A stretch of DNA of 64,000 nucleotides, from IMG/VR virus record IMGVR_UViG_3300020037_001525, positions 1 through 64,000 of that record, one strand, 5' to 3'. Shown here one piece after another: positions 3,685-27,268 of the stretch (positions within the stretch are counted from its first letter, which is position 1; every line of letters starts with the position of its first letter). The notes under the pieces were generated by a model, which worked only from the letters and a program-made list of their open reading frames with translations, had not been told where the DNA came from and did no database searches. The translations under genes and the position numbers were made by a program. The stretch comes from a virus (taxonomy: Duplodnaviria; Caudoviricetes).

Positions 3685-4176
3685 CTACAGTTTTGATAAA
3701 GCTAATGTTTTTAATAATTTCGTTGATTTCTCAATGTTTGCTATTGATAATCCATAACTCCCAGGAATAGTGTGGTCAACGAGCAATTCATCCATATCAG
3801 AAACTCCTGCTCCACCTGTCGTAACAATCAATCCTCCTGAATTTCCGACAATCAAAGACACATTGTCAACAACTTTGACATCTTCTATATTGTGATTTGC
3901 TCCTACGCATTTTACTGTGTAAGAACCATCTTCGAAGTCAACAGTGTAACCATTTATAATCTCAATGCTTCTTGCATAAGTTACACCTGATAGAAGCACC
4001 TGCGCACTATGTCTGTGTGTAGCCTCAAAGACCATCCCTTCATCACTATCTTCAAGGTCTTTCAAATCAAGTCTGAATTGGTTGACATCTAATTCATAGA
4101 TGTCTCCACCTAAATTGGTTAAATAGGCTTGTGGTACTGTTATTATTCGTGTTGCCCAATCAATTGATATAGCCAT
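3685..4176 (-). CDS. putative virion structural protein (163 aa)
   Basis: Beta-rich (MAISIDWATRIITVPQ...); coupled to the upstream 1171-aa gene; in a structural-like cassette. Confidence 0.6.
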   Translation of the reverse strand: MAISIDWATRIITVPQAYLTNLGGDIYELDVNQFRLDLKDLEDSDEGMVFEATHRHSAQVLLSGVTYARSIEIINGYTVDFEDGSYTVKCVGANHNIEDVKVVDNVSLIVGNSGGLIVTTGGAGVSDMDELLVDHTIPGSYGLSIANIEKSTKLLKTLALSKL

Positions 4177-14599: not shown

Positions 14600-15038
14600 T
14601 GTCTTCTATTGCTAATTTTAGTAAACAAATTGCGTCTGCGACGTTATCATCATTGCCTCTGTAACCGTATTTCTTGATTGCTGTCTTTATCATCTCTTTC
14701 TTACCACAATTCCCATTGCCTGTTGCATGCTTCTTTATGGTTTTAGCATGATATCCTTTGAATGGTATATCTCTCTCAGTGCATAGCAGTTCTATTACGC
14801 CTACATACTTTGCATGTGACATTATCGCTGCTGGCATTCTGCCTGACACTGCCTCGAAGAATATCATATCTATGGACTTCTCTTCTATTTTCTTGATAAG
14901 TTCGCTCCTGAACTTCAGCAATCGCATCCCGAAATTTTCATTCCTTGTAATTTTAAACGTCCATAACCCATGTGTTCCATCAGAGCATGCCCACCCTGTA
15001 AGCTCGGCAGGGTCAATTGCTAACACATTGTATTCCAT
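14586..15038 (-). CDS. ruvC: RuvC-like Holliday junction resolvase
   Basis: VLAIDP...TGW; IFFEAV; TIKKHATGNGNCGKKEM; DDNVADAI. Confidence 0.88.
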   Translation of the reverse strand: MEYNVLAIDPAELTGWACSDGTHGLWTFKITRNENFGMRLLKFRSELIKKIEEKSIDMIFFEAVSGRMPAAIMSHAKYVGVIELLCTERDIPFKGYHAKTIKKHATGNGNCGKKEMIKTAIKKYGYRGNDDNVADAICLLKLAIEDNEIQ

Positions 15039-15648
15039 TCTTTCTTAGTTTATTATTGATTTTCCTTCTTTTGTTCGATTGTCTAATTCTGTCTTTCATC
15101 TCTTCAGTCCAAATGAGATTCTTATTCTTGTTTACCATATACTCATTGAAGTGAGCAGGCATGTTATGTGGTTTACCTTTGTTTGCTTTAGATATGCTTA
15201 GCCTTGATTGTTCTGTATGTGATATTCCCAATCTTCTATTATTACCAATTAAAGAAGCTGTTATCTTAGCTTGAATATTTTCACTCCTTGATGGTTGAAT
15301 ACCTTTATCTTTCAATGTTTGGCTTATTCTTAAAGCTATCGATGGAATAGTTGATGGATTAACACAATTATGTCCAATTGCCGCTCCTTGTATAATATTG
15401 TATCCCACATCTGGGTTGCAAGAATTGAATTTCTTTATAAACAATTTCTCCCATATATTCAACATCTTTCTTGTACTGATATCGTCTTTCAATACCTCTT
15501 TTGTAAAATTTTCTTTGCCATACTTCTTGATAGCTACTGCTAATATTGTGCCTCCACCAATGTATTTCTTAGACTTTGATGATTCTTTGCAAGACTGTCC
15601 AATGTATATCTTGCCATTGACTAAGCAAAGTGTTTTATAGATATACAT
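15013..15648 (-). CDS. free-standing GIY-YIG homing endonuclease (Seg-like) with NUMOD3-like tail
   Basis: YIYKTLCLVNGKIYIGQ...AIKKYGKENF...E...I....GYN; HTEQSRLSISKANKGK. Confidence 0.88.
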   Translation of the reverse strand: MYIYKTLCLVNGKIYIGQSCKESSKSKKYIGGGTILAVAIKKYGKENFTKEVLKDDISTRKMLNIWEKLFIKKFNSCNPDVGYNIIQGAAIGHNCVNPSTIPSIALRISQTLKDKGIQPSRSENIQAKITASLIGNNRRLGISHTEQSRLSISKANKGKPHNMPAHFNEYMVNKNKNLIWTEEMKDRIRQSNKRRKINNKLRKNGIQCVSN

Positions 15649-22780: not shown

Positions 22781-24848
22781 TTATTTCGATAAATTTATGA
22801 TTTGTGTTTTGTCATACGAATATAGTGTATTACTGCCTGAATAATCCTCAAACTTTGTCTTACCTGTAATCGCTATTAACTTTCCCTTTAACTCTGGGAT
22901 GACGTCTCTAAATTCATCGAGAACATCTTCCCACAACATAACTCTTATTAAATCGCTGTTAGAAATCAACTCCATGGTGCAGTATTGAGAACCTTTCTTG
23001 GTAGTTTTCTCAATATAGAAGTTCAAAACACCGCAAATACAAACTTCTTTGTAATCTTTGCTTCTTTGAAACTCAATGTTATTGACATACATTGACTTCA
23101 AATTGTTAAGTCCTGAATTAGACAGCATTTGCTTATAGTCAACATCCCCATATCCTGTCAATTCCTTCTGTTTGAATATCCAAAAATAATCTTTGTATAT
23201 ATCTTCTGTTTGAAATTCTTCAGGGATATCCTCTTCAAATCTATCTAAGTGTTTTAAGACTAAAGATATACGTTCGCTTGGTTTGTTTATGTATTCTAAT
23301 TCATCGAAACAGCCTGACAATATCAAATTCATCAGTGTTTTCTTGTTGACATTCTTCTTAGGTATTCTGTTTGCAAAATCATTGTATGATTTAAATGGCT
23401 TTATTGTTCGTTCTGCTATTATGTGTCTAACATTAGCTTCGCCAACCCCTTTTATTTTAGTAAGAGACCAATATATGTTCTCATTATTGCACTCAAACTT
23501 ATTTGTAGATGTATTTATTGATGGTGGTTTCAATTGTATCTCCTTATGAGTCTTGCTCATCTCTGATATCCTATACATTATTTCGTCTTCAGAAGCATGC
23601 TGTAACGACGTTGTCCAAAACTCCAATGGATAATTAGCCTTAAACCACTGTGCCCAATACGCTATTATCGCATACGCTGATGCATGACTTTTATTGAATC
23701 CATAACCACCGAATGCAAGCAATTTATTCCATATCTTAATAGCATCGTGTTTATCACAACCTCTTTCCTCTGCCCCACTTATGAACTTTTGCTGATATGT
23801 AGCCATTATGTCTTTCTGGAACTTCTTCATATTTGTACGAAAACCATCAGACTCCACTAAAGTGAAACCACCTAATGTTACAACTGATTGCATGATTTGC
23901 TCTTGGTAGATTGTTAAACCATATGTGTTCTTAGTCACATCTTCTAACATATAATCATACTTCAACTTTCGTTTGCCATGCTTAATTTCTGCAAACTCTA
24001 TATGAGCATTGCTACTCATCGCTCCTGGTCGCCACAGCGCATTCATCGCTGTAAGTTCCTCTATGTTCTCTGGCTTAACTTTCGTACTGAAATTCTTCAT
24101 TCCAGATGAATTGAACTGAAATATGTCTTCATTGCAACCTCTTGCGAATAGTCTATAAGTCTTTTTGTCATCTAATCTTATATCATCAAGCACTATATCA
24201 TCACCCTTATTAACCTTTACCATATCTATTATGGACATAAACTTGTCTAATTGTGATAATCCTAATATATCTTCCTTCAGAAATCCTGCATTGTCTGTGT
24301 ACTTCCCTTCCCATTCAGCAACCAATAAACCATCTATCATTCTTACAGGCAACCAATCGTTAACATCGTATTCTTCACCGTGTTGATTCTGTTCTGGCAG
24401 AACTAATACTGCAGAAGCATGAACTGATGATGACCTTGGCTGTTCAAGACAGAACTTAATCATATTTATGATGTCAGGATATTGTTGACAAAAATTGTAC
24501 AATCCTTTGTTCTTAGTTGCATATTTGAATATATCTTCCCACTTATAGCTTACTTGATGTCCTATTGCTTTGGTTATCAAATTGCTGTATGTGAAGTCCA
24601 AATTTCTAACTTTAGCAAAGTCCTTCAACCCTGCTTTTATTTGCAATTTCGTGTATGTTCCTACTGAGCAAGTCTGAAACTCACCGAACCTTTCACGAAT
24701 GTATCCCTTCACAACGTCTCTGTATTCGCTTGGGAAATCCACATCGATATCTGGTATTTGCGCTCCCTTTATATTTCTACAAAGGGAGCAATTGAGGCAA
24801 AGAGTCCTTGCGCATCTCTTTGCTATATTCTATTTTTTTAATTTTCAT
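22781..24848 (-). CDS. dnaE: DNA polymerase III alpha, C-terminal half (predicted ATG at 24848, then a +1 skip over the 24752-24794 insert into the PDIDVDF frame)
   Basis: PDIDVDF, KEDILGL, NALWRPG, YQEQ, YGFNKSH, HhH and OB-fold motifs; the track ORF starts at GTG 24742, downstream of the catalytic PDID; no ATG in that frame back to the TAG at 24830-24832. Confidence 0.85.
24752..24794 (-). other. candidate ribosomal bypass (coding gap): stop-containing hairpin flanked by matched codons
   Basis: CCT-CAA-T[TGCTCCCTTTGTA GAAA TATAAAGGGAGCG]CAA-ATA-CCA-GAT; 13-bp stem (two G-U) with GAAA loop; in-frame TAG at 24777-24779. Confidence 0.6.
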
Positions 24849-25602
24849 TTAATATTGTTTTCTTTCTTGTCATACCTAATCTCCAACCTTCTGGTATTGG
24901 TTCCCCAATTCTTATTGCTGTATTTGTGACTCCGTTTGTTATCCTGACCTTCCCATACATTCCATTGTTTTCTCCCTTATTCAAATCGGACTCTAATAGT
25001 TTCTTGCTTAACTTTAACTTCATTTCTTCATTCCACTTATTTCCGAAGTTGGCATTCTTGTTGCCTTTTCGACTTCCATCTGAAAATTTCTTTGATAAAT
25101 GCGTCTTTTGTTCTTCACTCCAATTGTTTCCATAGTTTGGATTCTTATCTCCAATCAACTCCCTGCCTAAGATTGATAAATTCTCCTTGTATTCAGGATT
25201 ATTCTCATATCTTTCATTGATTATGGTTCTTAGCTTATTTCTAATTTCTGGTTTGCTCATTGCTTCTCTCATCCTTGGGAGCATATACTCCCTAATTCTT
25301 GGATTTTCTATTGGTGTTCCCTGACCAAAACAATTAGCAGTACCTTCAAGCAAATTATATCCTATTTCAATATTACAAGATTTGTATTTCTTTATATAAA
25401 CCATCTCAAATGCATCTAATTCTTTCTGAGTCTTGCATTCTCTCAACAATTCCTTGACGAAATTATGCAAACCGTGTTTCTTTATGGCTTTTCTTAACAG
25501 TGTACCACTTCCTATGTATTTATTTGATTTATCAAATGGATGCTTATGTTGACCAATATAAATCTTCCCATTGACTAAGCATGTTGTCTTGTATATATAC
25601 AT
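24838..25602 (-). mobile_element. GIY-YIG homing endonuclease with NUMOD3 repeats inserted within dnaE
   Basis: YIYKTTCLVNGKIYIGQH...YIGSG..L.KAIKKHG..NF; G..NP.YG..WSEE.K..LS repeats; lies between the two dnaE halves. Confidence 0.9.
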
Positions 25603-25608
25603 AAAGAA

Positions 25609-25618
25609 TTGATAACTG
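25609..25618 (-). promoter_or_regulatory. CAGTTATCAA variant of the candidate late promoter upstream of the endonuclease
   Basis: Fills most of the 16-nt gap between the dnaE-N stop and the endonuclease ATG. Confidence 0.35.
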
Positions 25619-27268
25619 TTAATCTAAGTCAATGTCATCGTCTTCTGTGAGTTCCTCAACCAAAACTTCACCTCTTTTTGTCTTAACCTTTGTGCCGTAT
25701 TGTATTTGCTTAGTTGAACCATTAGCTAATTGCAAATTAACATATTGTATAGGCAACACCCTTGTTGCATTCAAGAACCTCTCAAAAAGCAAATCATATT
25801 CTATTGGGTCAACATTTGTGATAAATAACAAATGACAAACCAAAGAACCAGCAGCAGAACCACGACCTGTTCCAACCATAATATCATTCTGACCACACCA
25901 ATTTATTATATCCCAAAGTATTAAGAAATAATCAACAATCTCTGCGCTCTCTATCAATTCCATCTCAATCTCTACACGCTTTCTGTATAAATCAACATCA
26001 AGACCTCTTTTCTCAACTTTCTCAACAAATCCATATTCTACCAACTCTCTAAAGTACTGTATGTTGCCCTTGCCTTTTGGTGCAAAATTATACTTTGGCA
26101 GTCTTGGTATACCAACTTCGATGCTAAAGTTGCAAGAATCAACAACCTGCTTCACACTATCAAGCATAGTATTGAACAAACGATTAAAGATATGCTTGTC
26201 TTTATACATCTTGGATGCTTGTTCTTCAATTTCGCTATATGGCTTGAAGTGTTCATCCTCACTGTAAGAGGTTATACGCTTGTCAACCTTATTGAGATAT
26301 TCCTTCAACTGAAAATACTCTTTTTCTATGTAATAACTATCTTGTATCAAGATTGGTTGAATGTGGTCTGTATATTGCTTAGTATAATTTCTTATGAATT
26401 CAAGATTGCTCATGTCAACCTTATCTTCATAGAATTCAGTGTAATCAACCTGTTGGTAAATCTGAGTGAAGTGTTTCTTGTAATTATCCACTGCTTTGAC
26501 AAATCCTTTTCTATCATTCTGCAAATGGCTTAATAATCCGAATTTACAAAATACCAATATCAAACCTTCGGAATGTTCAAACAGTATCTCTTCGGTGATG
26601 AACTCACCATCAAACATGGAATTAGAATAGTTATTGATTTTCAGTAGGTTCAACCAACCTTGCTTATCCTTGACATAAAGTTTTACATCAAATTTCTTTT
26701 GTAATTTTTCTTCTGGGTTGTAATCATAAGCAACTGGGACTGTTCTTCCAAGTATTGATTTTATACCTGCATCCCTGCATTCCATTTGAATGGCCATGGT
26801 TGCTGCTAATGTATTTTTATCACATATGCCTAATGCATTCATACCTAAAAACTTAGCTTTCTTGACCCAATTCTTTGGCTTACCACTTCCATTCAATAAT
26901 TCGTATTCTGAATGTACTCCCAAGTGTATATACCTATCATTGTTCTTAATCGCACAGTTGCCGACATACTTAAAATCATTGAATTCTGCTGAATATCTAA
27001 GGTATTCTGAATCTCCTGTATACTCCTTTAGTTTGGAATAATACCACCTTTTGCCAAATTCAAACAGGAAATAGTCTATCTCATATTCTTCCAGATGCTT
27101 TTGTTCGACTGAATTGAGAGTGAAACAGCAATCCTCATCAATTATCTTGTGTTTCTTTGGGTTCAAAAGCAACAACGTGCCTAAACCTTCAACAGTGTAT
27201 AATGATTCACTTGCTTCCTCAACTATCAATAAGTTTTCTGCTATCCATGATTTTAAACTATCAGACAT
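25619..27268 (-). CDS. dnaE: DNA polymerase III alpha, N-terminal half (PHP domain to FERFLN plus a beta-rich acidic tail)
   Basis: HLGVHSEY..L.G; YFLILWDII; GTGRGSAAGSLV..LL.IT.VDP..YDLLFERFLN. Confidence 0.92.
   Translation of the reverse strand: MSDSLKSWIAENLLIVEEASESLYTVEGLGTLLLLNPKKHKIIDEDCCFTLNSVEQKHLEEYEIDYFLFEFGKRWYYSKLKEYTGDSEYLRYSAEFNDFKYVGNCAIKNNDRYIHLGVHSEYELLNGSGKPKNWVKKAKFLGMNALGICDKNTLAATMAIQMECRDAGIKSILGRTVPVAYDYNPEEKLQKKFDVKLYVKDKQGWLNLLKINNYSNSMFDGEFITEEILFEHSEGLILVFCKFGLLSHLQNDRKGFVKAVDNYKKHFTQIYQQVDYTEFYEDKVDMSNLEFIRNYTKQYTDHIQPILIQDSYYIEKEYFQLKEYLNKVDKRITSYSEDEHFKPYSEIEEQASKMYKDKHIFNRLFNTMLDSVKQVVDSCNFSIEVGIPRLPKYNFAPKGKGNIQYFRELVEYGFVEKVEKRGLDVDLYRKRVEIEMELIESAEIVDYFLILWDIINWCGQNDIMVGTGRGSAAGSLVCHLLFITNVDPIEYDLLFERFLNATRVLPIQYVNLQLANGSTKQIQYGTKVKTKRGEVLVEELTEDDDIDLD

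Follow-up and report, generated by a model that had tools for sequence, protein, structure and literature searches.

How is the C-terminal half of a phage DNA polymerase made when a homing endonuclease gene and a 43-nt hairpin insert stand between its active-site codons? This question is raised by the dnaE locus on the minus strand of a 64,000-nt window (the whole stretch of DNA analysed here) from the 90-kb IMG/VR virus record IMGVR_UViG_3300020037_001525. The initial annotation had proposed that the endonuclease gene and the adjacent hairpin form a co-mobile cassette, analogous to mobA and gene 60 of phage T4, in which the insert protects its carrier from cleavage. Comparing the locus with its relatives, we consider the best explanation to be an element of the MobA/gene 60 type residing in phage dnaE and carrying a cassette that ribosomes bypass, and we put the probability of this reading at about 0.6. 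The evidence base for all comparisons is metagenomic contigs, and the loci were sampled non-randomly.

An endonuclease gene and a hairpin insert at the catalytic site of dnaE

The dnaE gene of the window is in two pieces, an N-half (27268-25619) and a C-half that begins at the ATG at position 24848. The parts of the locus are the following.

25757-27268, minus strand: core of the dnaE N-half, with the PHP domain and the first part of the palm (Pfam PHP and DNA_pol3_alpha profile positions 1-99; alignment with 15 relatives)
25619-25756, minus strand: tail, a 45-aa in-frame C-terminal extension of the N-half, with the stop codon (tail codons 25756-25622; homology to other tails)
25603-25618, minus strand: 16-nt spacer from the N-half stop to the endonuclease start
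24838-25602, minus strand: gene for a GIY-YIG/NUMOD3 homing endonuclease of 254 aa (Pfam)
24795-24848, minus strand: head, an 18-codon N-terminal extension of the C-half (the same head is joined directly to the catalytic motif in the relatives P0046 and L363)
24797-24823, minus strand: 5' stem-loop (stem of 8 bp); its 3' arm reaches to the first base of the proposed take-off codon (folding; covariation with the relative L319)
24752-24794, minus strand: 43-nt insert, putatively untranslated (folding; first 38 nt identical in L319)
22781-24751, minus strand: body of the dnaE C-half from the catalytic Asp-x-Asp-x-Asp-Phe codons (open for ~656 codons; palm, finger and HhH domains)

The features described by the initial annotation were all found on this strand, with coordinates and distances in agreement: 16 nt separate the N-half stop from the endonuclease start (25618-25603), and the insert lies less than 100 nt downstream of the endonuclease gene (86 nt from the stop codon to the end of the insert). 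Its placing of the endonuclease inside dnaE is correct insofar as the gene lies between the dnaE halves, but dnaE is not an otherwise continuous gene: hundreds of related phages, some with an endonuclease and some lacking one, have it broken at this position.

The last residue of the N-half core is Val504, in the conserved FERFLN..RV motif, and the tail follows directly. Hundreds of metagenomic dnaE N-halves (~550 aa) terminate in a tail of 45-80 aa homologous to that of the window. The identity of the tail is 78-80% in the database proteins P0005 and P0006, as compared with 56% over the whole protein for P0005, and a tblastn match to a Cellulophaga phage also extends into it. The enzyme encoded next has the two parts that define GIY-YIG homing endonucleases of the I-TevI/Seg type, an N-terminal GIY-YIG domain (24.4 bits; cut-off, 22.6) and a C-terminal NUMOD-type DNA-binding module (NUMOD3, 27.8 bits; cut-off, 20.4). 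The Tyr, Gly, Arg, Glu and Asn columns are conserved in the endonuclease alignment, and homologues with 44-85% identity occupy the same dnaE junction.

The head ATG at 24848 overlaps the end of the endonuclease reading frame (24838) by 11 nt in a different frame, unlike the tail, which the 16-nt spacer keeps apart from it. This ATG is preceded by an A-rich leader, typical of starts in the window genome, where only 1 of 58 genes has an upstream Shine-Dalgarno motif. The last head residues, Lys-Asp-Ser-Leu-Pro, are encoded by a copy of the host codons located just ahead of the catalytic motif; element-free genes read ..Ala-Asp-Ser-Met-Pro where the window head ends ..Asp-Ser-Leu-Pro.

The last base of the Ser-Leu-Pro codons is 24795; Asp-Ile-Asp is encoded from 24751, 43 nt further on and in the +1 frame. 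The intervening sequence consists of a 4-nt spacer, a 13-bp hairpin with a GAAA loop (24790-24761), within which lies an in-frame TAG (24779-24777), and an A/U-rich tail. The hairpin has a folding energy of −19.3 kcal/mol (z = −6.3), equalled by 0 of 200 shuffled sequences. We found no ATG, GTG or TTG upstream of the second catalytic Asp in the C-half frame of the window sequence; the sole canonical start, GTG 24742, falls between two catalytic aspartates of Asp-Ile-Asp-Val-Asp-Phe. Automatic gene calling begins the C-half at this GTG (22781-24742), and database proteins from genes with gap cassettes (P0124, P0125, P0126 and P0129) are likewise truncated or out of frame at their start.

The insert is a conserved insertion

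In the uninterrupted relatives P0046 and L363/L364 this head motif runs on without a break into the catalytic motif, which shows the 43 nt to be an insertion. The closest DNA relative, the ENA contig L319 (26,454 nt), is 81.5% identical at the nucleotide level over 3.8 kb, has the same order of parts, and holds both the endonuclease (85% amino acid identity) and the insert. The first 38 bases of the insert are identical (38 of 38) in the two sequences, against a background of 81%. In the 54-nt head we observed six differences, of which four are synonymous and form two compensatory pairs in the upstream stem-loop. These patterns indicate that the insert is under selection.

The L319 insert is 42 nt long as against 43 nt in the window, and the triplet before its first Asp codon is ACA in place of CCA. 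In L319 the head frame meets a TAG and the other frame is closed ahead of the aspartates.

A second relative (P0005/P0246/P0125, with identical contig statistics) is known from proteins only, and its endonuclease, P0246, is 72% identical to that of the window. The predicted N-terminus of P0125, called from an ATG, is an out-of-frame reading of a homologous insert, and its Leu-to-Ser and Lys-to-Arg changes, as far as a protein can tell, would fit a compensated stem. All three members of the window clade have the endonuclease together with the insert. At the DNA level there are no close relatives of the window among cultured phages, whose protein-level matches are all without a cassette and either split (Cellulophaga, Tenacibaculum) or fused (Bacteroides SJC03, Chryseobacterium MA9V-3); Chryseobacterium, Cellulophaga and Bacteroides phages are the nearest dnaE kin. 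A single-protein scan of IMG/VR gave no match, and an exact-pattern scan of metagenome contigs gave none for a hairpin of the window type.

A proposed ribosomal hop across the insert

For an active C-half, a ribosome would initiate at ATG 24848, read 18 codons, and leave the mRNA at CCU 24797-24795, helped by the upstream stem-loop refolding behind it and by the 13-bp GAAA-capped hairpin ahead. It would resume at or beside CCA 24754-24752, thereby joining Ser-Leu-Pro to Asp-Ile-Asp-Val-Asp-Phe. We consider such a hop likely on the comparative sequence evidence, because it is the sole route that fits the window (43 nt, +1), L319 (42 nt, in frame, with a stop) and the short gaps that occur in every frame in other lineages. 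Two signals probably drive it: the upstream hairpin as it refolds, and the hairpin that would sit in the decoding site. The codon matching seems loose.

Several details do not favour a hop. The codon after the window CCU is CAA, neither a stop nor a rare codon, and a stop is reached only five codons later. The insert hairpin begins 4 nt past the take-off codon, unlike in gene 60. A GGGAG lies in the stem and ends 8 nt before CCA, and no Shine-Dalgarno-like triplet is present 5-7 nt before the landing site; as the genome uses no Shine-Dalgarno sites (the 1 of 58 genes noted above), GGGAG is unlikely to be a landing aid. Moreover, the take-off and landing codons are CCU/CCA in the window but CCU/ACA in L319.

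Relatives of this dnaE number more than 519 in IMG/VR and 217 in metagenomes. We have surveyed about 390 related dnaE loci. About 25 distinct sequences have a gap, apparently untranslated, that opens immediately behind a motif codon (Pro, Asp or Ile), with lengths of 5-8, 12, 19, 24, 37-41 and 43 nt and with all three frames represented. In most of these loci a stop codon immediately follows the take-off codon. The take-off and landing codons are cognate in about ten contigs of the L296 group (GAC/GAC) and in L107 (AUC/AUU), and in the remaining loci they are near-cognate, compatible by G-U wobble or mismatched at the third position. Some gaps contain C-rich stems with UUCG or UUUG loops, like the T4-type cassettes. 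Every insert-bearing lineage has a strong stem-loop ending at the Pro codon, and the stems covary. The 45 nt ending at this codon have a mean folding energy of −18.4 kcal/mol in insert loci as against −9.4 in 67 intact junctions (p = 7e-11, relatedness ignored).

The cleanest candidate for a short hop is found in about ten contigs (L296, L301 and L305-L315, at about position 3750), in which Ser-Leu-Pro is followed by GAC, TAA, two bases, GAC and the catalytic codons, with a 9-bp hairpin and a GIY-YIG gene upstream.

The C-half could instead be expressed by a +1 frameshift, by stop read-through, from a non-canonical start in the downstream frame, or after removal of the 43-nt RNA. P0125 is called from an ATG in the downstream frame, three loci (L115, L111 and L063) have a start codon after a purine-rich stretch just ahead of the catalytic codons, so that a three-piece enzyme is possible there, and the shortest gaps, of 5-8 nt, look like short hops or shifts of the classical kind. 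In the window, however, the frame offers no ATG, GTG or TTG. In L319 the hairpin recurs in an insert of 42 nt, the TAG is in frame and the alternative frame is closed; this length excludes a single frameshift or an other-frame start, and no single alternative fits both genomes. The gap lengths also fall in all three frames across lineages, and we know of no bacterial system that excises 5-43 nt from an mRNA. We therefore regard these routes as improbable.

It is also conceivable that the insert is a repair scar and the C-half a dead gene. Double-strand breaks made by the endonuclease at this site could leave small insertions, and the data come entirely from metagenomic contigs. But the C-half stays open over ~656 codons and scores strongly for its domains, a relative diverged by 19% retains an unchanged cassette with compensatory changes in its flank, and an identical 8-nt gap recurs in seven contigs from several samples, with stems covarying across lineages. 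These observations leave a dead gene a very small chance.

A split gene with neither intron nor intein

How did dnaE come to be split? In cultured Cellulophaga and Tenacibaculum phages both halves are adjacent with nothing between them. Unsplit relatives are of two kinds, those having no extra residues and those in which tail and head are fused in frame.

Phage group I introns commonly hold GIY-YIG genes. The initial annotation had argued against such an intron from the shortness of the flanks, and this was borne out: no Rfam match was obtained at the locus at E-values up to 10, and the sequence upstream of the endonuclease is a conserved peptide, the tail. A group I intron was therefore rejected.

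For an intein we looked for a Hint fold of ~130 aa or more, an N-terminal Cys or Ser, and a C-terminal His-Asn followed by a nucleophile. The 45-aa tail, which starts with Leu, and the 18-aa head are too short and lack the splicing residues, so a split intein was rejected as well. Matches to Intein/Hint profiles are weak and confined to 4 of 23 tails of relatives. Real split inteins nevertheless occupy this same dnaE site in L277 and L283 (~3800-3950), with a GIY-YIG gene between the dnaE halves and an intein C-part that ends in Lys-Asn followed by Ser; an intein domain is also present in P0011. Weighing these occurrences against the Rfam result, the conserved upstream peptide and the short extensions, we give almost no credence to an intron or an intein as the carrier of the window endonuclease. 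The first strand of the L277/L283 intein C-part resembles the short heads of the non-intein forms. Because of the true split inteins at this site and the weak tail matches, the tails and heads may descend from degenerate split inteins.

Other tenants were noted in the survey. In a large clade (L064, L159-L172 and L206-L235) a PIF1-like helicase gene is stably resident between the dnaE halves, sometimes with a small Cys-rich reading frame. The C-half of L060, L066, L067, L074, L077, L080, L239, L243 and L248 has a second recurrent interruption of 400-830 nt near the position of residue 351 in the C-half protein of the window, which could be an endonuclease, an intein or an intron. In the window itself, a second free-standing GIY-YIG gene (211 aa; 15013-15648, minus strand) sits between an SbcC-like ATPase gene (17534-15651) and a RuvC-like gene (15038-14586). 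Its product begins with 18 residues that nearly match the start of the dnaE-associated enzyme, and the two genes share 81% DNA identity over 53 nt.

Endonuclease and cassette can move as a block and also occur apart

The element would span 25756-24752 of the window, ~1 kb within the catalytic-site codons of dnaE. It would supply the tail, the GIY-YIG endonuclease, the head re-encoding the replaced ..Asp-Ser-Leu-Pro codons, and the 43-nt cassette at the 3' junction. The polymerase halves would be made separately and probably be held together via tail and head.

A related pair of contigs records the gain or loss of such a block. L107 equals L110 plus one block of 1092 nt, comprising a tail, a GIY-YIG gene, a head and a gap cassette as its final part, with flanks 96.7% and 99.7% identical. 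The block substitutes for seven codons of the unsplit gene, and the element copy of the host codons differs from the host at third positions. The cassette position at the 3' junction between element and host is confirmed by this pair and by L375/L341.

Is the pairing obligate? Co-occurrence among relatives had been named beforehand as the check, and in this strict form it failed, since either part occurs alone. The analogy to mobA and gene 60 thus stands for the architecture, for the presence of both parts in the closest relatives and for the L107/L110 block, but not for a fixed pairing. Among 104 unique split junctions, which are raw counts of entries that are not phylogenetically independent, both parts were found in 11, the endonuclease alone in 13, the cassette alone in 14, and neither in 66. 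When relatives were collapsed, the association was modest, with an odds ratio of 3.7 (p = 0.025) at 95% identity and 2.6 (p = 0.10) at 90%; all of the collapsed counts are still biased, as one contributing search was sampled by endonuclease.

A number of observations count against the proposed element or against an obligate link between its parts. On collapsing at 80% identity the odds ratio falls to 1.9 (p = 0.37). L375 equals L341 plus a 1009-nt element that lacks a cassette and has its 3' junction exactly before the Pro codon. L266 and L019 (98-100% identical) differ solely in that the spacer of the gene, split in both, holds an endonuclease in one of them; their target is identical and uninterrupted. 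The nearest IMG/VR homologues of the window enzyme (44-45% identity) are all at this junction with intact heads, and orthologous endonucleases occupy the site without an insert in L024, L035, L044, L238-L266 and L332-L379. Conversely, inserts occur without an endonuclease in L063, L090, L091, L111 and L221, and the pairs L219/L221, L085/L090 and L115/L111 keep the cassette with or without the endonuclease. Because endonuclease-bearing genomes with an uninterrupted target exist, the cassette is dispensable for coexistence with the enzyme. Finally, no element-free close relative of the window was found among cultured phages, IMG/VR or metagenome contigs.

These points could mean that two separate tenants share one hot spot, the GIY-YIG gene having homed into the spacer of an already split dnaE, and the hairpin insert belonging to the C-half as a recoding or regulatory feature of separate or earlier origin, neither travelling with the endonuclease nor serving it. 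The L266/L019 and L375/L341 pairs, the cassettes remaining in endonuclease-free genomes and the weak association after collapsing are what this would predict, and helicase genes, methylase genes and genes of unassigned function are also found in the gap between the halves. Against it, the cassette belongs to the inserted block in L107/L110, its position is always the exact 3' junction of such elements, the window clade has both parts in three of three members, and a cassette is present in about half of the endonuclease-bearing lineages as against a fifth to a third of the others. On balance we find two separate tenants unlikely, though the least so of the alternatives considered.

Under the MobA/gene 60-type reading, these patterns describe one family of elements with and without a cassette, from which the endonuclease is often lost; endonuclease and cassette can travel as a single block, yet they are also found apart. 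Three endonuclease families occur at the junction: GIY-YIG, NUMOD4-HNH and an HNH-like type of 246 aa.

A tentative role in immunity

The cassette lies at the element-host junction, within sequence that the endonuclease family presumably recognises. We infer that cleavage would fall there, and the most likely purpose of the cassette would be to break the recognition site in the element-bearing genome, as in T4. That the cassette confers immunity from its own endonuclease, as the initial annotation had suggested, is a tentative proposal to which we give somewhat less than an even chance. It is put forward because the cassette sits at the junction in invariant codons and because of the T4 analogy, and also because several cassette-free endonuclease loci have replaced the Pro by Ser, Ala or Gly.

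The invariant Pro before the aspartates is changed to one of these residues in the cassette-free HNH loci L084, L173, L183, L200, L208 and L236. The same replacements were seen in cassette-free loci with a methylase gene (L080, L180, L186, L193, L197 and L199). Pro replacement may be an alternative way to alter the target.

Implications

To our knowledge, no programmed long-range bypass other than the 50-nt hop of T4 gene 60 has come to light in bacteria or phages in more than 30 years. Our full-text literature searches found no published bypass in dnaE; every bypass that they returned lies in a T4-type topoisomerase gene. A later survey, which described the cassette as unique, met with no cases other than homologues in that same topoisomerase gene (bioRxiv 10.1101/2022.08.31.505936). 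We see about an even chance that a large, hitherto undescribed family of programmed bypass cassettes (5-43 nt, all frames) resides at the catalytic Pro-Asp-x-Asp-x-Asp codons of phage dnaE, riding on, or left by, homing-endonuclease elements with tails and heads from degenerate split inteins.

If this is true, bypassing is no peculiarity of T4: selfish endonucleases would repeatedly have used it to disrupt their own target within invariant codons, and it would function even on the ribosomes of hosts without Shine-Dalgarno pairing. A second system, differing from gene 60 in host gene, endonuclease family and probably host phylum, would supply natural variants by the dozen, with gaps of 5 to 43 nt. 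With these one could test which bypass signals are general (upstream refolding hairpin, decoding-site hairpin, stop codon, codon matching) and why endonucleases and bypass cassettes associate. For annotators it provides a concrete rule, as such dnaE genes are now called truncated or starting past the catalytic residues.

Comparison with known systems

In Aeromonas phage Aeh1, MobE splits nrdA (cited in bioRxiv 10.1101/2022.08.31.505936). As in the window, the endonuclease there splits an enzyme gene and adds extensions needed for the function of the two-piece enzyme; as summarised in that citing account, the host gene and endonuclease family differ and there is no bypass cassette.

In fractured genes, split inteins have a free-standing endonuclease gene between the halves, including at three dnaE loci, and their description mentions no untranslated cassette (Dassa et al. 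2009, PMC2677866). The likeness lies in a phage-type dnaE in two pieces with a GIY-YIG or other endonuclease gene between them, and in the intein C-part at this site in L277/L283. The window tail and head are, by contrast, far too short and lack splicing residues, and protein splicing is not expected. The mitochondrial 'byps' of Magnusiomyces capitatus, reportedly described by Lang et al. in 2014, are said to be many hairpin inserts of 27-55 nt in coding regions that are hopped over and apparently mobile; unlike the window insert, they occur in a eukaryotic organelle, in dozens of genes and with no associated endonuclease gene.

In the T4 mobA/gene 60 system, as cited in a later account, an HNH endonuclease accompanies a 50-nt translational bypass in the gene for the large subunit of topoisomerase II (Bonocora et al. 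2011, cited in bioRxiv 10.1101/2022.08.31.505936). The MobA element consists of a C-terminal extension, the endonuclease, an N-terminal extension copying the replaced host codons, and an untranslated cassette at the 3' junction; it too exists with and without the cassette, and its endonuclease is often lost (Manning and Atkins, bioRxiv 10.1101/2022.08.31.505936). The dnaE elements differ in the host gene, which is not a topoisomerase gene, and in the endonuclease, which is GIY-YIG in the window and also NUMOD4-HNH or HNH-like in relatives. The window take-off codon, unlike that of T4 and of most other dnaE cassettes, has no stop or rare codon after it, and it encodes Pro in place of Gly or Asp. 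The window head has 18 codons as against 46, and the window host apparently does without Shine-Dalgarno pairing. Many dnaE lineages have gaps of 5-12 nt that would be driven by the upstream hairpin only, and many elements are free of a cassette. Comparison of the dnaE tails with the T4 gp39 extension gave an hhalign probability of 25%, which does not establish homology of the extensions. In pattern, the dnaE tails and heads resemble two T4 segments (L237; 3781-3960 and 2853-2990, minus strand), namely the C-terminal extension of gp39 and the beginning of gp60.

The points of agreement concern the plan of the element. In both systems an element of ~1 kb splits an essential replication enzyme at its metal-binding catalytic motif, the first reading frame gains an in-frame C-terminal extension, and the second has an N-terminal extension that overlaps the endonuclease gene in a different frame and finishes by repeating the host codons lost to the element. 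Both have a hairpin cassette of 20-50 nt, left untranslated, at the 3' junction and an upstream stem-loop that is stronger in element-bearing genomes, with UUCG, UUUG or GNRA loops; as in gene 60, the window has a tetraloop stem-loop at the take-off site in addition to the upstream one. In both, the endonuclease is often lost or swapped with the cassette kept, and split cassette-free as well as re-fused two-extension forms exist. The dnaE element is probably a second, independent case of the T4 gene 60 arrangement, with a hop over a 43-base hairpin.

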